A DNA stretch of 64,000 bases, from contig CAYNLA010000001.1 in NCBI GenBank assembly GCA_964397915.1, forward strand, positions 7,542 through 71,541. The letters run 5' to 3'. The stretch's first letter is position 1; every line of letters starts with the position of its first letter. Positions 5,212-43,619 of the stretch are shown piece after piece. The DNA is from an uncultured Polaribacter sp. Lineage in GTDB: Bacteria > Bacteroidota > Bacteroidia > Flavobacteriales > Schleiferiaceae. The position numbers and the translations under genes were made by a program. Below the pieces are notes generated by a model. It made no database searches and was not told where the DNA came from. It was given only the letters and a program-made list of their open reading frames with translations.

Positions 5212-5661
5212 TTAGTTGTTGTTGGACGGTTTTCTCTTTGCGTAGAAGTAAAGACTATGACTTTCAACCTCTACACCGAAAAGATCTTCGATAGTTTGTT
5301 TAATGTTTTGAATTCTTGGATCACAAAATTCGAATACTTCGCCTGTATCCGTGAGAATAACGTGATCGTGTTGTTTGTTGAAATACGATTTCTCGTAAAA
5401 GCTTTGGTTCTGACCAAACTGATGTTTGCGAACTAAACCACATGTAATTAGTAATTCAATGGTATTGTACAATGTGGCACGCGAAACGCGATAATTCTTA
5501 TTCTTCATGTTTAGATACAAGGTCTCTACATCAAAGTGGTCGTCATTTTCGTAGACCTCCTTTAAAATAGCAAAGCGTTCAGGAGTCTTTCTTTGGTTGT
5601 TTTCTTCCAAATAGCGACCGAACACTTCCTTAACCTTCTCGTATGCTTCTGTTGTACCCAT
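5212..5661 (-). CDS. Fur family transcriptional regulator
   Basis: Winged-helix [26 protein letters not shown]...[13 protein letters not shown] and C-terminal HDH...C region; 149 aa. Metal specificity is not determinable. Confidence 0.8.
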
Positions 5662-8606: not shown

Positions 8607-9049
8607 ACGTTTCTTTCAATAAATGCATTAATGGCTTGTTCAAGCATTTCAAACACCTCAGAAAATCCACTTTGACCGCCAGTATACGGATCTGGGACCT
8701 GCCTGTTCTCGCCCGGATAGATTTCATTCATAATCAGTCTAACTTTTGAAGCACTTTGCTCATCTGGGGCTAAGCGCACAATGTTGCTATAGTTTGATGA
8801 GTCCATTGCGAAAATGACATCAAAATTTTCAAAGTCTTGAACTTGAAATTGTCGGGAGCGCTGATGATCAATGGATATACCATTTCGTCGAGCCTCTAAT
8901 ACCGAACGTGTATCAGGTCGTTCACCTTGATGCCAACCGGAGGTACCTGCAGAATCTACGGACCAATGTTCGGGTAATTTTGCTTCGAGAATTCCGTGAG
9001 CTAGTGGGGAACGGCAAATATTGCCTAGGCAAACCATTAGAATTTTCAT
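8603..9049 (-). CDS. low molecular weight protein-tyrosine phosphatase
   Basis: Active-site loop MKILMVCLGNICRSP (CX5R) and DP general-acid motif (QVPDPY); 148 aa. Confidence 0.9.
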   Translation of the reverse strand: MKILMVCLGNICRSPLAHGILEAKLPEHWSVDSAGTSGWHQGERPDTRSVLEARRNGISIDHQRSRQFQVQDFENFDVIFAMDSSNYSNIVRLAPDEQSASKVRLIMNEIYPGENRQVPDPYTGGQSGFSEVFEMLEQAINAFIERNV

Positions 9050-9051
9050 AA

Positions 9052-9082
9052 TAAAAAAAGTCAGTACCCGAAGATACTGACT
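9052..9082 (-). terminator. rho-independent terminator downstream of dnaA
   Basis: 8-bp stem AGTCAGTA(9059-9066)/TACTGACT(9075-9082). On the minus strand it is followed by a T-run (plus-strand A-run 9053-9059). Confidence 0.7.
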
Positions 9083-9106
9083 CTAATAGCATTCATTAAA
9101 AATGTC

Positions 9107-10540
9107 TTATGATAATGTGAGTCTTTTCTGTAAATCCTCCACATAAGTTCTGAAGCGCTTGTCTGTTTCCTTCAGATTATTTACCGTTCTGCAAGCATGC
9201 AAGACTGTCGCATGGTCTTTATTACCACATTGTTGGCCAATTGATGCAAGGCTGTTCTTGGTCAATTGTTTTGAGAAATACATAGACAACTGACGCGCTT
9301 GTACGATTTCTCTTTTTCGAGTTTTACTCTTCAACAACTCAAGAGGCATATCAAAGTAATCGCAAACGACTTTTTGAATAAAGTCAATTGAAATCTCTCT
9401 AGTCGTGCTCTTAACGAATTTATCGACCATTGACTTTACTAGGTCCATGGTGATTTCTTTTCTATTTAAGCTACTTTGGGCCAAAATAGAGATAAGGGCA
9501 CCTTCGAGCTCTCTAATGTTGGAATTGATGGCATAAGCGATGTATTCTATGATCTCTTGATCCATTTCAATACCATCGTTATACAGCTTCTTAACCAAGA
9601 TTGCAACGCGAGTTTCTAAATCCGGTTTCTGTAAATCAGCGCTCAATCCCCATTTAAAACGGCTTAACAAACGTTGCTCCATACCTTGTAGCTCCACGGG
9701 AGCACGATCCGAGGTTAGAATAATTTGATTGCCATTTTGATGGAGGTGGTTGAAAATCTCAAAGAACACATCTTGAGTTTTTTCTTTACCTGAGAAACTC
9801 TGAACATCATCGATAATGAGCACATCAATCATTTGATAGAAATGCACAAAATCATTTTTGGTGTTGTTCCGTATGCTGTCAATAAATTGTTGTGTGAATT
9901 TCTCAGCACTAACGTACAAAACGGTCTTTTCAGGGTAGTTGTCCTTTATTTCAACACCAATGGCATGAGCCAAATGGGTCTTTCCTAGACCTACACCACC
10001 ATACAACATCAAAGGATTGAATGAGGTGCCTCCTGGATTCTTAGATACCGCAAAACCCGCACTACGCGCCAATCTGTTGCAATCACCCTCGATAAAATTA
10101 TCGAAGTTGTAACTTGGATTTAGCTGAGAATCGATGTTAAGCTTTTGAAGACCGGGTATAACGAAAGGATTTTTAATGCTCTTCTCGTTTCCAATCTTCA
10201 TTGGCATGTTAACACTTTGGGGATTGATCTTCTTACGACCAGCACTTGGGAGCTTCATCGTAGGAGGTGTAGCGTTGTCGTAAGCATTCTCTAAGACAAT
10301 GCTATATACCAATTTTGCGTTCGTGCCTAACGATTTAGTAATCGCTGATCTAAGTAGTTGAATGTAGTTCTCTTCGAGGTATTCATAAAAGAACTTAGAA
10401 GGTACTTGAACAGTAAGTACAGCTCCCTGAATTTTTAGTGGTTTGATTGGCTCAAACCATGTTGCAAAACATTGTTCATCTACATTGTCATTAATGAATT
10501 GGAGTGTATCATTCCAAACGGCATTAACGCTTTTATCCAT
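9107..10540 (-). CDS. dnaA: chromosomal replication initiator DnaA
   Basis: AAA+ Walker A GGVGLGKTHL, Walker B IDDVQ, C-terminal DNA-binding helix KDHATVLHA. ATG at 10540 (MDKSVNAVWN) preferred over the TTG at 10546. Confidence 0.97.
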   Translation of the reverse strand: MDKSVNAVWNDTLQFINDNVDEQCFATWFEPIKPLKIQGAVLTVQVPSKFFYEYLEENYIQLLRSAITKSLGTNAKLVYSIVLENAYDNATPPTMKLPSAGRKKINPQSVNMPMKIGNEKSIKNPFVIPGLQKLNIDSQLNPSYNFDNFIEGDCNRLARSAGFAVSKNPGGTSFNPLMLYGGVGLGKTHLAHAIGVEIKDNYPEKTVLYVSAEKFTQQFIDSIRNNTKNDFVHFYQMIDVLIIDDVQSFSGKEKTQDVFFEIFNHLHQNGNQIILTSDRAPVELQGMEQRLLSRFKWGLSADLQKPDLETRVAILVKKLYNDGIEMDQEIIEYIAYAINSNIRELEGALISILAQSSLNRKEITMDLVKSMVDKFVKSTTREISIDFIQKVVCDYFDMPLELLKSKTRKREIVQARQLSMYFSKQLTKNSLASIGQQCGNKDHATVLHACRTVNNLKETDKRFRTYVEDLQKRLTLS

Positions 10541-10546
10541 GGTCAA

Positions 10547-10878
10547 AAAATCTCTTATCGGCGGCTGTTCAAACCTCCGTCAGTGTACAGTTAATATAAA
10601 ATGTCTGGGGCGGCAATTTTGAGGTGAGTGTGACCTCATTGTCTTGCTTTACAAATGTGTTTATAAAATCCCAATCAAAAAAATTTTTATGGGGTTGTGT
10701 TAATAAAAAGTTTTGTTTAAGGGGTTGTATAATCATCTGTTAATCAATGATTTGAGTATTCGGCCAAAAAAAATAAGTATAAATTACTGCTATGGCGCTG
10801 CCTTGTGCATAAATAGTAGAGTTTGAGCCTTTTGGGTTGTGGAATTCATCCGAAGGAAAGTTCTAAATTGAAGGCCCA
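10547..10878. promoter_or_regulatory. unusually long intergenic region between divergent dnaA and thioesterase; dnaA promoter and possible DnaA-box/oriC-related elements
   Basis: 332 bp. It has two A/T runs, one 8/9 DnaA-box match TGTGCATAA (10804-10812), and GGGGTTGT at 10691 and 10721 plus GGGTTGT at 10834. Confidence 0.3.
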
Positions 10879-11295
10879 ATGGAAATAAATTTTACAAATA
10901 TTACTGAATTTCGTCCGCGCTATTCCGAGACGGATCAAATGGGTGTGGTGTACTACGGAAACTACGCCAGCTATTTCGAAGTTGGCCGTGTCGAATTGCT
11001 TCGGGATATTGGGATGACCTATGCAGAAATGGAAGCTTCAGGAACAATGCTTCCAGTAGTACATATGTCTATTGATTTTAAGCGTGGTGCGAAGTACGAT
11101 GAGCGGATCTTTTTGGAGACCAAACTTATTGACTTGCCAACACGAAAGATATCATTTTACCATCATTTGCGTGACGCCTCAGGCAACACGCTGGTCACAG
11201 GTAAGGTTGTCCTTGTTTTTTGTGATACAAAAACTTTTAAGCCAAAAAGTTGTCCTGAAACATTACTTAAATGTCTTAGCGAACCTTTAAAGTAA
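10879..11295 (+). CDS. acyl-CoA thioesterase, YbgC/4HBT hotdog family
   Basis: RYSETDQMGVVYYGNYASYFEVGRVELLR catalytic Asp region; 138 aa. Confidence 0.85.
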   Translation: MEINFTNITEFRPRYSETDQMGVVYYGNYASYFEVGRVELLRDIGMTYAEMEASGTMLPVVHMSIDFKRGAKYDERIFLETKLIDLPTRKISFYHHLRDASGNTLVTGKVVLVFCDTKTFKPKSCPETLLKCLSEPLK

Positions 11296-12853
11296 GCGCG
11301 GGCATGTCCGTTCCATAGACTTCAATGAGGCAAGTATGTCGATTCAAAACGGTTGCACCTGGCGCGGCGACCAATTGTGAAATCAATCTACCAAGGGCAT
11401 CGTACTCATTTACGAATAATTCGGAATCCTTGGGGTTGAGTATTCCTCTTTCTCCCAATTCATTCGCGAATATACTCGGGTTAAGTACTTGGGTAAGGTT
11501 CGCAACCTCACTTGTAGTTAGGATGTTCTTTGGAGTGCCAAATGCGGAATTAATTTGATTTTGATACTGTCCACCTGTGATAAGCGAATCGGTAAACAAT
11601 ATATTCTTAGCGATGGAGCGAAGGCTTTGATTGGGAAGAAGCATATGGCATGCTTCGAGAATTATCTTGTCCGCTGTTGAAGGATTTACGCCATTTGACT
11701 CTGAAAATTCTAACATAGCACTCGTCATTAAGTCGGTATGCTGATAGATGTTGGAAAAGAATAGGGTATTGTAGTTCTTAACACCATCGTAAGCAATGGA
11801 ACGTCCATTCCAAAACGTATTGTTTCCATCCCAATCAAATACTCTTGTACTTGTGACACCGATATTTCTGCCGTAGCGTTCTGCGAAATAATCCCCGAGA
11901 CTTTCATCAAAAGTTCTCCGCTCTGTTCCTGTGTTTGTATTTGGCGCAACTGAATGCGAAATAGCATGACTTAGTTCATGAATGATGACATCAGCATCTT
12001 CGGCATCGTCAACGCCACCTTCTCCGAAATAAAGACGCGGTGGATTATAACCGAAATTAAACATGCTTTGATCTTGACCATTGAGTGCTTGAGGATCAAC
12101 ATGTATGGCATAATTCAGCACTGAATCGTAGCCTAGGCTTTGAAGATATTCATTCATCTTGGAGATATGATAAACAACCATAACCTGTTCGAATTCTGGT
12201 TCTGATCTGCTGCTTATCCAATCAGAAGGCACCGTGCTTGGGGCAATATACGGTGCGTCAAAATCGACCACTTTAATAAATTGATTCTCCAATTCCGCAC
12301 CTCCTTGGATTGCATTGACCTCTATGCTGTCTATTAGTGTTAAAGAATCTAAGATTGCTCCATTTCCATCGTTCAAATCCACATAATTGCCGCCATAGCT
12401 GTATCCGTTGGGTGAAAGCGGGTCAGGGTTGAAAACGCGAACTGCGACTGTTGTATCCGTTAAATGCGCATTCAAATCTCTAATTTGCACTACCTCATTC
12501 CTCGACCGTATGGTGATCTGATGCGTGGATCCTTGTAATAGCGTATCGATGGTTATGTCTAGCCACTGTTGGCCATCAAACCATAAGGCGGGTCCTATGG
12601 GATTTAAAGGAAGTAAAGACCGCTTATAAGGGTTTAGGGTGGAACTGTGTTTAATTATCGTTCCGTCTGAATGATGATGAAGTTCCAATTCTAGCTCATC
12701 AAAGAGCATTGCTCCACTGACACTTAATGCGAAACGCTTATAAAGCGCATGTGGACTGTGGTGCGTACTGCTAAGCGTTCGCTTTATTTCAGGTGTATTC
12801 TGACTAAAGAGGCTAAAACTAATGAGTAACAGTAATGAGGTGATTGTTTTCAA
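11276..12853 (-). CDS. secreted zinc metalloprotease with T9SS-type C-terminal sorting domain
   Basis: Signal peptide MKTITSLLLLISFSLFSQ and HExxH (VIIHELSHAISH). The last ~70 aa look like a Por/T9SS CTD (LNPS...VNEYDALGRLI...LTLKVR). Confidence 0.6.
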   Translation of the reverse strand: MKTITSLLLLISFSLFSQNTPEIKRTLSSTHHSPHALYKRFALSVSGAMLFDELELELHHHSDGTIIKHSSTLNPYKRSLLPLNPIGPALWFDGQQWLDITIDTLLQGSTHQITIRSRNEVVQIRDLNAHLTDTTVAVRVFNPDPLSPNGYSYGGNYVDLNDGNGAILDSLTLIDSIEVNAIQGGAELENQFIKVVDFDAPYIAPSTVPSDWISSRSEPEFEQVMVVYHISKMNEYLQSLGYDSVLNYAIHVDPQALNGQDQSMFNFGYNPPRLYFGEGGVDDAEDADVIIHELSHAISHSVAPNTNTGTERRTFDESLGDYFAERYGRNIGVTSTRVFDWDGNNTFWNGRSIAYDGVKNYNTLFFSNIYQHTDLMTSAMLEFSESNGVNPSTADKIILEACHMLLPNQSLRSIAKNILFTDSLITGGQYQNQINSAFGTPKNILTTSEVANLTQVLNPSIFANELGERGILNPKDSELFVNEYDALGRLISQLVAAPGATVLNRHTCLIEVYGTDMPALTLKVR

Positions 12854-37229: not shown

Positions 37230-38015
37230 ATGGGCCAAAAAGGTGAATTAATATTTATGGGTACAGGCACATCACAAGGTGTACCAGTCATTGGTTGTGA
37301 TTGCGATGTTTGTATCAGCAAGGACCCCAAGGATAAAAGAAGTCGTTCATCCGTTCATTTCTCGTTTAGTGATGCCAAAATTCAAGTAGATACAGGGCCT
37401 GATTTTAGAAGTCAAATGCTGCGGGAAAATATTTCAGGGGTAGATGCGGTTTTCTTCACTCATGAACATCAAGATCACATTGCTGGACTTGATGATGTAC
37501 GCCCTATGATTTTTCGAACAAAGAAGGCAATGCCCATTTATGGACAGGAACGTGTCATTAATAGAATCAAACGGGCATTTCATTATGCCTTTGAGGAGAA
37601 CCCGTATCCAGGTGCACCTAAATTTGATATCAACTACATCAATGACTCCAATCTTGTTGTAATCAACGGGATAGAAGTTTTACCCATTTCTGTGATGCAT
37701 GGCCAACTTCCCATATTGGGATATAGGATAGGGGATACCGCCTACATTACAGATGTAAAAACGGTACCTAACACCTCATTACAATTGCTAAAAGGACTTA
37801 AAACACTCGTCTTTGATGCCCTACATGATTATCCCCATCAAAGCCATTGTACATTGGATGAGGCCATTGAATGGGCTGAGATAATTGGGGCAGAGTCAAC
37901 GTATTTCATCCATTTAAGCCATCACATGGGTACACATGAGGCGACGACGAGGAGATTGCCTGAAAACATGCACATTGCTTACGATGGACTACGGTTGCCC
38001 GTTTCTACCCTTTAA
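37230..38015 (+). CDS. MBL-fold metallo-hydrolase (PhnP-like)
   Basis: GTGTSQGVP...CDCDVC Zn-ribbon-like insert and HEHQDH metal motif. Confidence 0.8.
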   Translation: MGQKGELIFMGTGTSQGVPVIGCDCDVCISKDPKDKRSRSSVHFSFSDAKIQVDTGPDFRSQMLRENISGVDAVFFTHEHQDHIAGLDDVRPMIFRTKKAMPIYGQERVINRIKRAFHYAFEENPYPGAPKFDINYINDSNLVVINGIEVLPISVMHGQLPILGYRIGDTAYITDVKTVPNTSLQLLKGLKTLVFDALHDYPHQSHCTLDEAIEWAEIIGAESTYFIHLSHHMGTHEATTRRLPENMHIAYDGLRLPVSTL

Positions 38016-39274
38016 AGCGAAAGTAGATTTCCCTTTACAAAGACCGCTTTAACATTATGCGAAGTATGGGTTCCGCGGAATGGATTATTATGAGCTTTGC
38101 TTGCAAAACCTGTCCAATCTTGTCCATCAGTTCCAATAATTGTGAACTCCGCTTCTCCACCTTCAACGATACCCAAACTAGGCAACCCCAGTAGCTTACG
38201 AGGATTGGTCGAACATAATTCTTGGATGCGTTCGTTGGGGATAAGGTCTAGATCTAACAAATGACATAATGCGCCTTCGAATCCTGCCATTCCAAATTCG
38301 GCATTATCAAATTCACATTGCTTTTGTTCGATGTCTTTTGGCAAATGATCCACAGATAAACAATCGACTGTTCCGTCAAGGGTCGCGTTTAAGAGTGCTT
38401 CTTGATCCTTTTTGCTTCTAAGCGGAGGGCTGACTTTGAGCGAGGTATCGTAGTGTATTAAATCCTCTTCTGTGAATAAGAGATGATGGATGTTTACACT
38501 ACAGGTTACGTTCAAGCCTAATTCTTTTGCTTCACGAATAGCAGCAATTCCCTTCGCTGTACTCACACTTGCGATGTGTAAGGATCCTTCGGTATACTCT
38601 AGAATATTTAAATCTCGCTGAATACGGGCGTACTCGGATAATGCAGGTATGCCTTTCAGGCCAACATATGTACTCGTCACGCCCTCATTCATTTTACCTC
38701 CCGCGACAAGTTCATGATCTTCTGGATGAACCATAATTCGACCGAAAGGCTTCGTGTAGAGGAGGGCAAGTTTCAACAAATTGGCGTTTGACATGCCATG
38801 TTTGTAATCAACGAATAACTCACTGCCGTGCTCGAACATGTCGAACATTTCACTAAGCTCTTCTCCTTTACGTCCCTTAGTAGCGGTGCCGATTGGAATT
38901 AAATGAACTGGACTTTGATCGCTTTTATTGGTAATGAATTCTATTCCGGTCTTATTATCGGCAAACGGGGTTCCATTGCTTACTACACCTACGGCTGTAT
39001 AGCCACCGGCTGCAGCGGCCGCTGCACCAGATCGCAGGGTCTCAGACTCTTCGTTTCCGGGCTCGCCTAAATCACTGTGCAATTCAGCAAAACCTGGATA
39101 AAGATCTGCCCCAGCAGCATCCCAAGTATTCCCATCAAAAGAATCAATAGTACCGATTTGTGCAATAGAATCTCCTTCAATCAATACATCAACAGTTTCA
39201 TTGTGATAAGGACTGTTGGTGTCAACGATGTGCGCGTTCTTAATCAGGAGCTGCATCTCAGAAAATTTTGACAA
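38012..39274 (-). CDS. dihydroorotase-like amidohydrolase with degenerate metal ligands (PyrC-prime-like)
   Basis: Amidohydrolase fold by overall pattern. The N-terminal HxH is ELHSDLGEPG, and the later HV/HIST-type His is SLHIASVST. VDHLPK is retained. An alternative start is the ATG at 39256 (MQLLIKNAH). Confidence 0.7.
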   Translation of the reverse strand: MSKFSEMQLLIKNAHIVDTNSPYHNETVDVLIEGDSIAQIGTIDSFDGNTWDAAGADLYPGFAELHSDLGEPGNEESETLRSGAAAAAAGGYTAVGVVSNGTPFADNKTGIEFITNKSDQSPVHLIPIGTATKGRKGEELSEMFDMFEHGSELFVDYKHGMSNANLLKLALLYTKPFGRIMVHPEDHELVAGGKMNEGVTSTYVGLKGIPALSEYARIQRDLNILEYTEGSLHIASVSTAKGIAAIREAKELGLNVTCSVNIHHLLFTEEDLIHYDTSLKVSPPLRSKKDQEALLNATLDGTVDCLSVDHLPKDIEQKQCEFDNAEFGMAGFEGALCHLLDLDLIPNERIQELCSTNPRKLLGLPSLGIVEGGEAEFTIIGTDGQDWTGFASKAHNNPFRGTHTSHNVKAVFVKGNLLSL

Positions 39275-40721
39275 AAATAACGGCTATTAGCACGAAAAGC
39301 AATGCAAAGAGCAAGGCAATTTTTGAATTGTCCCAATCAACCTGCGCCAATGCTAGGTTTTCGCTTCCAATTTCTGAAGATTCACCGAATAAAATCTGAT
39401 CACCAAAGCGCTCAAGATTTACGGCGTAGTTATCGTTTCCTAGCGGCCTATTAGTACCGATGTTAACGGAACTGCTTTTGAACGACCACTGCTTTAGCGC
39501 TGTATAGTAGGGGTGCGTTACATCATCTATTTCAAATCCTTGCATGTAAATTCTTTGAGAAGATTGAGAAATAAAGCCCGATAGTATGCTCTCCCCATCT
39601 TGTAGTAATGCTTCGCTCGTTGGATCGATGAAGTTAGACTTTTCGGGGGATGGCCAATTATTTCTAGGTGAAGCACCTATAAAATACTTTGAGTAGAAGG
39701 GGTGATTTAGATTCGCCCTTGGCTGCTCTAGAATTTTCGCGTTTTTCAATTCTACAGGAAAAACTAAAAGCGTTTTTACAGAGGATAATATGGGTTCTGG
39801 GATAAAATCAAAACCGAACAACACCGCAGTTTCAAACTCGGTTTCAAGTGGCTCGGAAAAATCATCATACTCAATTATAGTGTCTACTTTGAATACCTTG
39901 GCGATTTGCGTTGCGGCTTGTTTTTGATTATCCAATAAATAGTAAAGTGCTCTTCTTGACTTCGATCGCTTCCTTATTTTGATTGTATTATCGGCTTCCA
40001 ACAAGTCAGAACTATGAACGACAGAATACTCCAGATCCGCTTTTAGAAGGTCCAATTGGATATCAATTTTTGACACGGAGTCCCATTCGAGGAATAATTC
40101 ATCACCTTCAAACATTTTCCACAACCCCTTATCATCACCGGTATTAAGCGCAACCTTATCGTCACTCAATTCTACCGAGCACAATGCGTTGAAGAGAACG
40201 TCACGCTTTGGAAGCAAATAAGACGCGTAATTTGAATCAATGGGCGCAAAGCCATAGGAGAGCAGTGTGCCCATGACTTCAGGTAGTGGTGCCAGTGATG
40301 AAGGCCATTGCTCTAATACGGTCAATAGAGCTGCCTTGTCAATACTATTCAGTTCTGTACCACCACGCAACAGGACATTGTACTTCCCTGATGGAAGCAA
40401 GGGCAATAAATCAACAAGCCAATCTTGTCGTTGTTCCCAACCCGCAGGGTGATTGTCAATAATTAACGTTTTAGAAGGTTTGTCTAGGGACGGCTTTGCT
40501 AATGCTAGCACCACAGCAAGAACAGCTAAAATGCGCAGAAGCAATACGATTAAATCTTTTAAACGATGCCGTTTCCGCTGTTTAGCTTGAAACGTTTTGA
40601 GCCACATTAATGATGGAATCGCTATAGGCTTTGAAGGTCTTCGACCTATCATATGGATAACTAGCGGGACCAAGGCAAATAGTCCCGCCCATAGCCATTG
40701 TGGTTGTTCAAATCCTATCAT
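39258..40721 (-). CDS. BatA N-terminal double-TM domain protein
   Basis: N-terminus FEQPQWLWAGLFALVPLVIHMIGRR, typical of the aerotolerance BatA-N/TIGR02226-type domain. C-terminal TM anchor. Confidence 0.65.
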   Translation of the reverse strand: MIGFEQPQWLWAGLFALVPLVIHMIGRRPSKPIAIPSLMWLKTFQAKQRKRHRLKDLIVLLLRILAVLAVVLALAKPSLDKPSKTLIIDNHPAGWEQRQDWLVDLLPLLPSGKYNVLLRGGTELNSIDKAALLTVLEQWPSSLAPLPEVMGTLLSYGFAPIDSNYASYLLPKRDVLFNALCSVELSDDKVALNTGDDKGLWKMFEGDELFLEWDSVSKIDIQLDLLKADLEYSVVHSSDLLEADNTIKIRKRSKSRRALYYLLDNQKQAATQIAKVFKVDTIIEYDDFSEPLETEFETAVLFGFDFIPEPILSSVKTLLVFPVELKNAKILEQPRANLNHPFYSKYFIGASPRNNWPSPEKSNFIDPTSEALLQDGESILSGFISQSSQRIYMQGFEIDDVTHPYYTALKQWSFKSSSVNIGTNRPLGNDNYAVNLERFGDQILFGESSEIGSENLALAQVDWDNSKIALLFALLFVLIAVIFVKIF

Positions 40722-41149
40722 TTTAATCGTGCATTCACCAGCGTAAACGGTAAGTTCTCAGGAGTTGTATTTAGCTTGATTTGCCCAATTACGGTGACTA
40801 CATCATCCGTCAATAATTTTTGTGGTGATTCAAATAAGATTTCCATTACGCTTTCCGGTCCAGCTGCACCGCAGAAAAAGCAAGATGAAAATGGAAATGC
40901 ACTTAATGCATAGACTTGGTCTACAGGATCAAGAACAATGGCATATCCAGTTACTAATACATAAGAACCTGACCATGATTTGCGCTGTTCCTCAGTCCAT
41001 TGAGGAACTTGGACCCAGGTCGCAGTAGGTTCATCATAAACTTCTTCAAATGAAATTGATTCCAACTCACTCCATAATAGGCGTTCTTGCGCCGCCACAG
41101 CAGTGCCCATCATGATAAAAGTGAGTATTAAAACAGATCGCTGTATCAT
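40718..41149 (-). CDS. secreted small protein, DUF3299-like, paralog A
   Basis: Signal peptide, then VTGYAIVLDP...YALSAFPFSSCFFCGAAGPESVMEILF. It is a tandem paralog of the upstream ORF. Confidence 0.6.
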   Translation of the reverse strand: MIQRSVLILTFIMMGTAVAAQERLLWSELESISFEEVYDEPTATWVQVPQWTEEQRKSWSGSYVLVTGYAIVLDPVDQVYALSAFPFSSCFFCGAAGPESVMEILFESPQKLLTDDVVTVIGQIKLNTTPENLPFTLVNARLK

Positions 41150-41565
41150 CCGTGAAATTCTGCTTGCTGAATAATGAAGAATAAACGGTAGGGATCCTTT
41201 TCATTGAAGACTATCGTTCCTTTAATTACAACAAATTGGTCCGTAATTAAATGATCAGGTTGATTCTTAAAAACCAATTCAACCACCGTGTTTGGAGCCG
41301 CGTTACCGCAAAAAAAACAGCTTGAAAATGCATATCGACTGAGTGCGTATTGCTTTGTCTGAACATCTACAGGCACCAAATAACCTTGAAGTACAACCTC
41401 TTGATTCTTATAGCCATCAAGCCATGTTGGAAATTGAGGTTGGTATAGTCCATCTGGTGTTGTAGTGTAGGGAACTGCGAGTAAATCCCAGGACAACACT
41501 TGTTGTGCTTTCATGGAAGTGATGCTACTCAGACATACCAACGAAATAAATAAGAGATTTTTCAT
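41146..41565 (-). CDS. secreted small protein, DUF3299-like, paralog B
   Basis: Signal peptide MKNLLFISLVCLSSITSMKAQ, then LQGYLVPVDV...YALSRYAFSSCFFCGNAAPNTVVELVF. Confidence 0.6.
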   Translation of the reverse strand: MKNLLFISLVCLSSITSMKAQQVLSWDLLAVPYTTTPDGLYQPQFPTWLDGYKNQEVVLQGYLVPVDVQTKQYALSRYAFSSCFFCGNAAPNTVVELVFKNQPDHLITDQFVVIKGTIVFNEKDPYRLFFIIQQAEFHG

Positions 41566-41569
41566 AGTA

Positions 41570-42640
41570 TTATTTTCGCAATCGCATGATTACTAGCGAC
41601 GTAAGCCATAGCGTTAAACAAACTCCGTAATCAATAATCTGTATTGAACCTGGAAAATAATTCTCAATAACTTGTAAGGAGAGGAGGAGGCCAAAAAATC
41701 CAAAAAGACTATAAAGGCCGAAAGCTGCGAGAATCTTTTTCCCATTCGTCCATTTTAACGTTGCCAAATATGCTTGGGTGGAACGTTCGTTTCCTGCTAT
41801 GTTCCACATCATAGCTAAGTACAGTAATGCCATTACAATACCTAGAATAGTCCCGAATTTCCGTGCTTTCAAAAGTGTTGGTTCCCATTGCTTTTGAATC
41901 TGTCCAAACACAAAAACAGGAAAAGCGCCTTGCTCATCAGCTCTCTTTGCAATAGTTGCCGGGAGCATCAACATGGCAGACTTTGATTTTAATCGCAGCA
42001 AAAGTGAGGTATAGGTCCGCTCAGATTGATGATGTAAATCGAGATAAGCTTCATTCGTCGTGAAGAAACAATCTTGGTCCGATTGTCGGTTCGCTTTAAT
42101 GATGCCTACAACTTTAAGAGGATGAGCGTGTCCTTCGCCTCGCGCATCGCTGCCGTGAGATGATTGCAATTCATTTCCAATCTCAATGCCTAAGGATGTT
42201 GCCAAATTTTCGGCCAAGACTAGATCGTGTGGTCCATTGGGATAATGGCCTTCTAACAATGTAATTCCAAACCATTCGTAATAGCCGTCTTCAACGCCAA
42301 CTAAAGGGTGTCCATCGATATTATCGCCCATGGACAATGCACAAGAGTTCTGTACCAGTGGATGTTTGGTCCAAAAATCATAGGTTGAGCCTGAAATATT
42401 ACCCGTTGGATTCTCTAATCGAAACAGGGCGTTTGCAATAATTTGAATGGGACTTCCTTTATAACCAATGATTACATCGACCAATTCTGCGCTTTCCTGC
42501 CATGTGGAATACAAATATTGTTCTCCTGCTTTTGAAGACTTTATCAGTGAGCCTGTCGTAAATGCCAATACAAAAACGACACCCAATAACATCCAGCGAC
42601 GCTTTAATTGGATCAACCATATGTAAACGACCTTCATCAT
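41570..42640 (-). CDS. ABC transporter permease, MacB/FtsX-like, with large extracytoplasmic domain
   Basis: One N-terminal TM segment, a ~220-aa loop containing HGSDARGEGHAHP, then a C-terminal TM bundle; 356 aa. Confidence 0.7.
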   Translation of the reverse strand: MMKVVYIWLIQLKRRWMLLGVVFVLAFTTGSLIKSSKAGEQYLYSTWQESAELVDVIIGYKGSPIQIIANALFRLENPTGNISGSTYDFWTKHPLVQNSCALSMGDNIDGHPLVGVEDGYYEWFGITLLEGHYPNGPHDLVLAENLATSLGIEIGNELQSSHGSDARGEGHAHPLKVVGIIKANRQSDQDCFFTTNEAYLDLHHQSERTYTSLLLRLKSKSAMLMLPATIAKRADEQGAFPVFVFGQIQKQWEPTLLKARKFGTILGIVMALLYLAMMWNIAGNERSTQAYLATLKWTNGKKILAAFGLYSLFGFFGLLLSLQVIENYFPGSIQIIDYGVCLTLWLTSLVIMRLRK

Positions 42641-43167
42641 AACTCAAATCGTTTAGCCGCAGAGAATGCTTTCTTAAGACGTTCGTCGTGGGTTACGACA
42701 ATAACCGTCCCTAATGGATTGTCTATACTCCAATTTTCAATAAGCTCGATGGCTTTATCAGCCCAATCATCATCAAGCGCACTGGTCGGCTCATCAAGTA
42801 ATAATAGTTCCGAATCCACGTGCAATGCTGCTAGTAGCGAAAAACGTTGCAATTGACCAATGCTTAGTTCATGAGGAAAACGACGGACCAATTGGTCCAA
42901 TCCTAAACTTGTAAAATCCACACCCTGAGCTCCAGCAACCTTCAACTGTTCGTGCATCCTTAAATAGGGAATCCAAGTAGGGGTTTGAGACATAATGGAA
43001 GAGGAGCCTTCTACATTCGGAATAGGACCATCCGCCTTTAGTATTCCGTGTAGAACCCTCAAAAGAGTAGTCTTGCCGGTACCTGAAGCGCCGGTAACCA
43101 AAATGATTCCTGATACTAATTCCAGTTTAGGATAGTTGATGGTATGTGTACCGAAGTTTACAGTCAT
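42637..43167 (-). CDS. ABC transporter ATP-binding protein (short, 176 aa)
   Basis: Walker A GASGTGKTT, Q-loop MSQTP, variant signature LSIGQLQR, Walker B LLLLDEPTSALD, H-loop VVTHD. Confidence 0.85.
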   Translation of the reverse strand: MTVNFGTHTINYPKLELVSGIILVTGASGTGKTTLLRVLHGILKADGPIPNVEGSSSIMSQTPTWIPYLRMHEQLKVAGAQGVDFTSLGLDQLVRRFPHELSIGQLQRFSLLAALHVDSELLLLDEPTSALDDDWADKAIELIENWSIDNPLGTVIVVTHDERLKKAFSAAKRFEL

Positions 43168-43619
43168 CCGAATAAGTTATAGCAATAAACCAATGGTGCC
43201 GCGATACAATACGCCAATTTCATCACCATTCCAGTAAACAATCCAATCACTGCAAAAAATGCCGCTTTTAAGCTTTTCAATACATCACGGGTTTGTAAAA
43301 GTTCACCCAACATGGCACCCACAAAGGCTGCCAGAATGAAAAACGGAGTGATAATTCCAGCAATCAAACCGATGAGCGCTCCACGGGAAGCCGCCTTCGA
43401 ACCACCGCCAAGCTTTGTAAATATGGAAGGCATAAAATAATCGGCCACGAAAACAATAAGTCCAAGGCTCGCCCAAACAGCTAAATTCATGCCCTCTATG
43501 GGGCCTTGGTTTGTGAGTATTAAGACCAATGCACCTGCCGTGAGTAATGGACCGGGAAGCACTGGCAATACGGCTCCAGCTAGACCTGCGATGAACAATA
43601 AAACAATTGCAACTTCCAT
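43164..43619 (-). CDS. DUF456 family membrane protein
   Basis: Four hydrophobic helices. N-terminus LAGAVLPVLPGPLL is typical of DUF456. Confidence 0.65.
   Translation of the reverse strand: MEVAIVLLFIAGLAGAVLPVLPGPLLTAGALVLILTNQGPIEGMNLAVWASLGLIVFVADYFMPSIFTKLGGGSKAASRGALIGLIAGIITPFFILAAFVGAMLGELLQTRDVLKSLKAAFFAVIGLFTGMVMKLAYCIAAPLVYCYNLFG

Follow-up and report, generated by a model that had tools for sequence, protein, structure and literature searches.

The subject of this analysis is a pair of small adjacent genes, A and B, in a 64,000-nucleotide stretch of DNA (contig CAYNLA010000001.1, positions 7,542 to 71,541) from an uncultured Polaribacter sp. of the Schleiferiaceae. We refer to this whole stretch as the window and to the assembly from which it comes (1.8 Mb, ~91% complete) as the window genome. 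A and B lie within a block of co-directional genes in the order DUF456, ATP-binding cassette (ABC) ATPase, permease, B, A, BatA_N, and dihydroorotase-like gene (Table 1). Nearly all junctions in this block are 4-bp overlaps, including the one at which the stop of B, the upstream gene of the pair, and the start of A share 4 bp. The proteins encoded by A and B align over their full length with 31% identity (BLASTP, E 1e-19), which upholds the tandem paralogy claimed in an earlier interpretation of the DNA letters, hereafter the sequence-only reading. The peptides quoted in that reading are exact, and the spacing of the motif shared by the two proteins, given there as YALS-x4-FSSCFFCG, is corrected to YALS-x3-FSSCFFCG. 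The paired cysteines of the motif are Cys90 and Cys93 in A and Cys83 and Cys86 in B, where the motif context reads C-F-F-C-G-N-A-A-P-N.

The N termini of A and B begin with basic residues, followed by a hydrophobic leader and then an invariant glutamine at position 21, in agreement with the rule that signal peptidase I of Bacteroidota exposes an N-terminal Gln (PMC5837995). We infer from these features that both proteins are exported, as the sequence-only reading had also claimed. A lipoprotein reading of B was rejected: its Cys11 lies outside any lipobox and is not conserved in orthologs, and A and B are therefore probably soluble proteins of the periplasm. Homolog searches returned ~170 close relatives for each of the two proteins, each ~140 aa long. 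In an alignment of 23 A- and B-type orthologs, the motif residues Y80, A81, L82, S83, F87, S89, C90, F91, F92, C93, G94, and P98 are invariant, as are Q21, W26, G68, Y69, D74, D115, G122, and N127 elsewhere in the sequence. Conservation of the motif in orthologs, the point on which the sequence-only reading had staked its claim beforehand, also extends to the wider A/B family, where the C-x-x-C is kept in 503 of 508 aligned domains and the Phe-Phe between the cysteines and the Gly that follows them are nearly as constant as the cysteines themselves. Searching 1.84 billion representative proteins with the A/B profile gave 1176 clusters (50% identity) at E <= 1e-3, and the family was found in 28 of 301 sampled Bacteroidota genomes. 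One apparent member, P0287 (5620 aa, 42 matched stretches), was rejected as a cysteine-free repeat protein with a chance match to G-T-A-E-P-N-S-V-V-D-V-T-F.

Neither A nor B has a match in Pfam or NCBIfam at E <= 0.1; both proteins fall short of the gathering score of PF11736, the DUF3299 model (22 bits), and no PF11736 match was found genome-wide at E <= 1. Weak PF11736 matches occur in 8 of 50 diverse members of the A/B family (best 7e-5), and many relatives of A and B are already labelled 'DUF3299 domain-containing protein' in NCBI and UniRef. For comparison we used a reference alignment of 11 bona fide DUF3299 proteins from other classes of the phylum, which score 57-70 bits on PF11736. 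Aligning the A/B profile with this reference in hhalign gave a probability of 97.1% and an E of 5.9e-11 over 88 columns, with Cys90 of A falling on the sole invariant cysteine of DUF3299. The core common to both families is G-Y-x-x-P...[FY]-x-L-x-x-x-P-F-x-x-C...(N/P)-E. The bona fide loops in other Bacteroidota classes read P-F-F-G-C-C-Y-S-V-P-P-E-P-N-E or P-F-M-G-C-M-H-V-P-P-P-Q-A-N-E. The DUF3299 profile also matches PDB entry 4hsp (E 2e-17), with the motif Y-Y-G-A-C-I-H-V-P-P-P-P-S-N-Q; this entry is PA4066, an oligonucleotide/oligosaccharide-binding (OB)-like protein that gave no clue to function (PMC8561739). A wide alignment of the A/B family compared with the 4hsp fragment alone matched it weakly, at 32% probability and in the same register, and PDB sequence searches with both A/B-family profiles returned chance matches only. 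A and B lack the DUF3299 loop signature G-C-x-H-x-P-P-P-x-N-E/Q: they retain the first Cys, with P-F before it, and the remainder of the loop is replaced by F-F-C-G-x-A-G-P-E. The loop C-I-H-V-P-P-P-P-x-N-Q of PA4066 and its Vibrio counterpart ZrgE thus contrasts with C-F-F-C-G-x-A-G-P-E in A and B. These profile comparisons place A and B in a distinct Cys-x-x-Cys branch of the DUF3299 superfamily, beyond the reach of the Pfam model. The branch is new, while DUF3299 itself is already known but unexplained. The sequence-only reading was right about the paralogs and their motif but did not recognize the family to which they belong.

The AlphaFold2 model of A (predicted local distance difference test, pLDDT, 86) retrieves generic OB folds in Foldseek, namely the AspRS N-domain, RPA, and CST, at E ~1e-2 and TM-scores of ~0.4. 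A is thus predicted to be an OB-fold protein, with the Foldseek matches weak. The motif loop is the lowest-confidence part of the domain model (pLDDT ~74), and in the model the C-x-x-C comes after a short helix and does not cap a helix. Weak matches to DUF1980_C, the C-terminal domain of the YcgQ family (PF21537), were found in 2 of 50 members of the A/B family (best E 1e-4), which suggests that DUF1980_C and the A/B family could share one wider superfamily, the match being too weak to call.

The ATPase and permease genes upstream of B encode the probable partners of the pair. The ATPase retains the Walker A, Q-loop, signature, Walker B, and H-loop motifs in its translation. The permease itself has no Pfam match, FtsX and MacB_PCD included; its orthologs match both families. 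The AlphaFold2 model of the permease (pLDDT 88.5) has the layout of one transmembrane (TM) helix, a periplasmic domain, and then TM2-4. In Foldseek it matches MacB (5gko, E 8e-14), followed by LolCDE, HrtBA, and YbbAP, with 53 matches at E <= 1e-3; the model and the orthologs thus bear out the MacB-type assignment of the sequence-only reading. The matches to MacB, LolCDE, and HrtBA, at E 1e-13 to 1e-11, point to the same predicted topology for all of these permeases. In contrast to those machines, the one in the window has no membrane-fusion protein, TolC, or LolA-type partner, and no membrane-fusion or outer-membrane partner gene lies within the operon. The permease also differs from MacB, LolCDE, and HrtBA in an invariant triad of histidines in its periplasmic domain, shared only with DUF3299-linked permeases. 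In our alignments His162-Gly163, His171, and His203 are invariant, permeases adjoining bona fide DUF3299 genes included, and G-D and A-K-G-S-P motifs are also common to window-type and DUF3299-linked permeases. By these alignments the window permease and the permeases paired with true DUF3299 proteins belong to one orthologous type. The hairpin from His162 to His171 (loop 161-170) is modeled with the lowest confidence in the permease (pLDDT 59). Many permease orthologs carry a long His/Asp/Glu-rich loop directly after His203, which is absent in the window's clade. There the permease is shortened, with 356 aa compared to 415-445 aa and with the His-rich insert lost and the three invariant histidines kept, and the ATPase is shortened as well, with 176 aa compared to 208-218 aa in orthologs.

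In ~70 of 80 related loci, the permease gene is linked to a gene encoding a CFFCG protein, as we call members of the A/B family. Most of the 80 have the order ATPase, permease, (B), A, which recurs in Echinicola, Marivirga, Spirosomataceae, and metagenome contigs. The DUF3299 proteins PA4066 and ZrgE are small, exported, and OB-like, as A and B are predicted to be, with the invariant cysteine aligned, and their genes likewise stand directly after a split MacB-type ATPase and permease. A single DUF3299 gene is present in those systems, in contrast to the two fixed paralogs of the window. We consider it very probable that both the family and the partner of A and B are correctly assigned.

The duplication that gave rise to the pair appears to be ancient. 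Across 90 loci, the CFFCG gene is present in two copies in 57, one copy in 31, and three copies in 2. In a phylogenetic tree, the B-type upstream copies form a single clade of 52 sequences (support 100/97) that spans the Schleiferiaceae, Cryomorphaceae, Owenweeksiaceae, and Phaeocystidibacteraceae, all within the Flavobacteriales, and A-type copies cluster with the single-copy genes of other lineages. Because one B-type clade extends across four families, the A/B duplication must be old and the order permease-B-A fixed. B is more conserved and evolves more slowly than A, and the old duplication, fixed order, and slower B fit two non-redundant roles. Two metagenomic proteins, P0249 (268 aa) and P0390 (271 aa), are natural tandem fusions of two DUF3299-like domains, evidence that a pair of them can function within a single chain. 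Both domains of these fusions carry a degenerate C-x-x-C, partly replaced by His-containing loops.

The operon is transcribed, with the proviso that DNA carry-over is possible in libraries of the kind examined. Salt-marsh metatranscriptome contigs match the operon genes at >= 99% identity, and up to 93% of the operon's sampled words are present in the salt-marsh metatranscriptome assemblies. A single RNA-derived contig, corresponding to 41004-43321 of the window, runs from the 5' part of A through the whole of B, the permease gene, and the ATPase gene into DUF456, and other RNA-derived contigs span the junction of A with the BatA_N gene. Promoter and terminator scans gave results at chance level only. 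Two sequence variants at 40910-41033, in gene A, occur within the same RNA samples, which indicates co-existing strains.

In other bacteria, the closest counterparts of this operon respond to zinc. The DUF3299 gene zrgE is induced 75-fold under zinc deficiency (PMC9817125), and PA4063-PA4066 of Pseudomonas aeruginosa is zinc-repressed (PMC11481552). ZrgABCDE of Vibrio cholerae and V. parahaemolyticus and PA4063-PA4066 share with the window operon a split ATPase, a four-helix permease with a large periplasmic domain, and a DUF3299-type protein. Both are Zur-regulated, and Cytophagales relatives of the window operon appear to share an operator with zinc-starvation genes. In Roseivirga spongicola, the gene order is Fur-family regulator, MerC-like protein, CFFCG protein, His-rich lipoprotein, and ZigA-like GTPase, the last of which reaches 573 bits against the cut-off of 600 for the ZigA zinc-metallochaperone model. 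In Dyadobacter koreensis, the neighbors of the CFFCG gene encode CobW, a His-rich lipoprotein, and a membrane protein that has a Cys-Cys motif. In Marivirga, the ABC-MacB-CFFCG genes and a DUF1826-CobW-MerC unit are divergently oriented. A 15-bp palindrome, TGCAAC-N3-GTTGCA, occurs in the relevant intergenic regions of seven loci from Cytophagales and other Bacteroidia. Genome-wide, the exact palindrome is found 3 times in Roseivirga, 7 times in Dyadobacter, and 2 times in Echinicola, compared with 0 for a reversed control, and the additional sites precede MerC-CobW, Fur-family, TonB-receptor, and RND (resistance-nodulation-division) genes. Together, the genes that follow the palindrome look like a small metal regulon, most simply of the Zur type, and TGCAAC-N3-GTTGCA is a candidate Zur-type operator of Bacteroidota, with its binding by the regulator putative.

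The His-rich lipoproteins encoded beside CFFCG genes in Roseivirga and Dyadobacter belong to no Pfam family, and one contains the stretch E-I-P-G-H-H-L-E-L-P-G-H-E-G-H-D-H-S-H-G; they may be stand-ins for ZrgA/PA4063. In Echinicola rosea, the module is followed by genes for DUF4625 proteins and a TonB-dependent receptor, each after a near-match to the palindrome, and these may form the outer-membrane leg of the same regulon.

Table 1. Coordinates of the genes, motifs, and sites discussed in the text; positions refer to the window unless a locus number is given.
Feature	Position	Strand	Details and basis
Paralog A	40718-41149	minus	143 aa; open reading frame list
Conserved block of A, Y80-A-L-S-A-F-P-F-S-S-C90-F-F-C93-G-A-A-G-P-E99	40853-40912	minus	alignments
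S-C-F-F-C-G of A (Cys90, Cys93)	40868-40885	minus	sequence
Paralog B	41146-41565	minus	139 aa; open reading frame list
S-C-F-F-C-G of B (Cys83, Cys86)	41305-41322	minus	sequence, orthologs
MacB-fold (type VII ABC) permease, 356 aa, predicted 4 TM helices and periplasmic domain	41570-42640	minus	AlphaFold2, Foldseek, orthologs
Permease periplasmic segment with His162-Gly163, His171, His203	42032-42157	minus	two permease alignments
Short ABC ATPase, 176 aa	42637-43167	minus	Pfam ABC_tran 2e-14; FtsE, DevA, LolD-like NCBIfam matches
DUF456 membrane protein, first of co-directional block	43164-43619	minus	Pfam DUF456 1e-24
BatA_N / double-transmembrane N-terminal protein, 487 aa	39258-40721	minus	start overlaps A stop by 4 bp
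Diverged dihydroorotase-like gene, end of block	38012-39274	minus	synteny, 297 bits
Fur-family gene	~5242-5601 (G000 C1:12783-13142)	minus	92 bits, PF01475
Palindrome sites, Roseivirga	L064:5575, 4439, 8957		
Palindrome sites, Dyadobacter	L094:5876, 5912, 6540		
Palindrome sites, Echinicola rosea	L093:4946, 8437, 8614		
Palindrome sites, other loci	L098:4012; L099:3865; L078:3969; L076:5577		
His-rich lipoprotein, Roseivirga	L064:6423-6791		no Pfam family
His-rich lipoprotein, Dyadobacter	L094:6575-6991		no Pfam family
DUF4625 proteins and TonB-dependent receptor, Echinicola rosea	L093:7560-8330, 8675-10918, 10937-11401		each after palindrome near-match

The superfamily carries a ligand-like series of residues in a single loop, with G-A-C-I-H in 4hsp, G-C-M-H or G-C-C-Y in other Bacteroidota classes, and S-C-F-F-C-G in A and B. 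Where a lone Cys is followed by His, no disulfide can form, and the shared Cys position is therefore more likely to be a functional thiol. We propose that A and B are periplasmic partners of the co-transcribed split MacB-fold ABC machine, which would be of the Zrg or PA4063-PA4066 type. Each protein would present an exposed two-thiolate site, formed by Cys90 and Cys93 in A and by Cys83 and Cys86 in B, that holds a metal ion at low coordination number, with zinc the best candidate. The low coordination number would make the ion transferable by ligand exchange. In this process, the ion could be exchanged between A and B, and to or from His162, His171, and His203 of the permease, with ATP hydrolysis driving a movement of the periplasmic domain that loads or unloads the site and so gates the exchange. 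Transfer could run towards uptake or towards expulsion; the sequence-only reading, which described the pair as feeding the permease, presumed import.

For this reading as a whole, in which A and B handle metal through periplasmic thiolates as partners of a Zrg-type ABC machine, with zinc as the probable metal, we see about an even chance. Some role of A and B in metal handling is slightly favored, with indirect support from their homology to ZrgE and PA4066, the zinc-type neighbors and shared operator in Cytophagales, and the invariant permease histidines. Naming zinc in particular is tentative, and direct cooperation between A and B is doubtful. By analogy with the zinc hook of Rad50, the CFFCG knuckles of A and B, or of two copies of the protein in single-gene species, might form a transient intermolecular four-thiolate metal site that exchanges its ion with the histidine triad of the permease under ATP control. 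We consider this arrangement improbable. If it were true, the Zrg/DUF3299 machine would be a distinct ABC-powered periplasmic metal relay without a classical cluster A-I binding protein, in which the second DUF3299 paralog replaces ZrgA in marine Flavobacteriales.

In the MerP-MerT/MerC relay and in the Atx1 and CopZ metallochaperones, an exposed C-x-x-C is carried on a small soluble protein with a ferredoxin-like fold. The predicted two-cysteine site of A and B, exposed on a small protein, would be analogous, and CFFCG genes adjoin a MerC-family gene in Cytophagales. The predicted OB fold of A and B is, however, unrelated to that of the metallochaperones, and the window genome has no MerC-like gene.

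Several observations weigh against a metal-handling role or against zinc. To our knowledge, no DUF3299 protein has been shown to bind metal. A contains no histidines, and 4hsp is absent among the 50 Foldseek matches listed for its model. The palindrome TGCAAC-N3-GTTGCA is found neither before the window operon nor in any of the Flavobacteriales loci, and a search of the window genome that allowed one mismatch gave 6 sites, approximately the chance expectation. The genome has no homolog of MerC or COG0523 in phmmer searches with Cytophagales queries (PF02492 matches are weak and represent generic GTPases). No match to ZrgA/PA4063 (PF10986) was detected at E <= 0.01 in the genome, which is ~91% complete, and none in the operon. 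Compared with ZrgABCDE, the window operon lacks ZrgA (DUF2796) and ZrgD and adds a second DUF3299-like gene and DUF456, and compared with both ZrgABCDE and PA4063-PA4066 its ATPase and permease are shortened, its permease has no His-rich insert, and its regulation by zinc is unsupported. The only Fur-family gene found in the genome was detected with PF01475, after being missed by the phmmer query, and lies in the window (Table 1). With no palindrome, a single Fur-family gene, and no COG0523, MerC, or ZrgA, the link to zinc rests on the relatives. Among these relatives, the structure of PA4066 reportedly shows no evident capacity for zinc binding, PA4063-PA4066 was argued to export a cobalt-pyochelin complex, and no MacB-type machine is known to move substrates through the inner membrane (PMC11481552). 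A single zrgE knock-out had no effect on growth under zinc chelation (PMC9820375).

The cysteine pair itself allows a simpler explanation, in which the two cysteines of the C-x-x-C form a disulfide with a structural role, stapling the loop that follows the fourth strand. A and B would then be non-metal adaptors or substrate-binding modules, with a lipid, peptide, lipoprotein, or envelope precursor as cargo. Both proteins are predicted to be exported into an oxidizing compartment, where a C-x-x-C may form a plain disulfide. Phe-Phe-Gly is conserved about as strictly as the cysteines, which is not usual in a simple metal knuckle and may instead reflect packing or a hydrophobic ligand, and the known relatives of the permease act on lipoproteins, haem, peptides, and antibiotics. 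The missing zinc-regulon signature around the operon in the window genome and the lack of an evident zinc site in PA4066 (PMC11481552) fit this explanation as well. However, the DUF3299 loop has one invariant Cys followed by His, or Cys-Cys, neither of which is a disulfide pattern, and the fusion proteins P0249 and P0390, which have lost the C-x-x-C, have His in the same loop. A disulfide would also leave aside the three invariant periplasmic histidines and His-rich inserts of the permease family and the ties, by position and by palindrome, of the Cytophagales relatives to ZigA-like, MerC-like, and Fur-family genes. On balance, we regard a purely structural disulfide as unlikely.

A second alternative keeps metal binding and reverses its direction, with the MacB-type machine removing a metal or metal chelate from the periplasm and A and B collecting and presenting the cargo. 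MacB mechanotransmission acts from the periplasmic side, and cobalt accumulates in a PA4065 mutant (PMC11481552). In Echinicola, a palindrome site lies between a Fur-family gene and the gene for an RND pump of the AcrB family, and neither the operon nor the genome of the window encodes a membrane channel such as MerC. An expeller of this kind is nonetheless quite unlikely: the operon has no gene for a membrane-fusion or outer-membrane partner, Vibrio zrgABC supports growth under zinc limitation (PMC9820375), and the neighbors co-regulated in Cytophagales (ZigA-like proteins, TonB receptors, and MerC-like proteins) are of the acquisition type. The remaining alternative, that in the periplasm A and B act on the ABC substrate as thiol-disulfide exchangers or reductants, for example in reductive release of a metal from its chelate, draws on the C-x-x-C as a classical redox motif, on two diverged paralogs that could form a relay, and on a peroxiredoxin-family gene adjoining the module in one Spirosomataceae locus, but is very unlikely given a predicted OB rather than thioredoxin-like fold with the motif following a short helix that it does not cap, no DsbD/CcdA-type electron supplier as a conserved neighbor in any locus examined, and Cys-x-His DUF3299 relatives that are incapable of two-thiol redox chemistry.

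In Vibrio and Pseudomonas, few genes are repressed by zinc as strongly as those for DUF3299 proteins and the split MacB-type ABC machines that accompany them, yet neither the role of DUF3299 nor the direction of its system, import or export, has been explained in the field. The relatives of A and B offer three handles on this problem. The first is a natural ligand series in one loop that differs by branch, with Cys-x-His, Cys-Cys, or Cys-x-x-Cys. The second is the conserved histidine triad on the periplasmic domain of the permease, with His-rich inserts adjoining it in many orthologs. The third is the candidate regulon of Cytophagales, in which one palindrome joins the module with the ZigA-like GTPase, MerC-like proteins, and His-rich lipoproteins. 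That a shortened, two-paralog system is kept in a streamlined 1.8-Mb marine flavobacterium and is transcribed in salt marsh argues for a core physiological role.

Synteny of DUF456 is limited to the window's own clade and Phaeocystidibacter. The BatA_N gene, which is translationally coupled to A, is syntenic in Flavobacteriales and absent from Cytophagales loci; the C-terminal part of its product is unassigned. Across Flavobacteriales the dihydroorotase-like gene and the A-type gene are conserved neighbors, and in some loci (e.g., L040) the two overlap directly. The window copy reaches 297 bits on a dihydroorotase model whose equivalog cut-off is 728, and its metal-ligand motif is altered, with E-L-H-S-D in place of D-x-H-x-H. 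A second dihydroorotase-like gene is present on contig C20 of the genome, and the copy in the window may encode an inactive PyrC'-like protein or a zinc-independent paralog.

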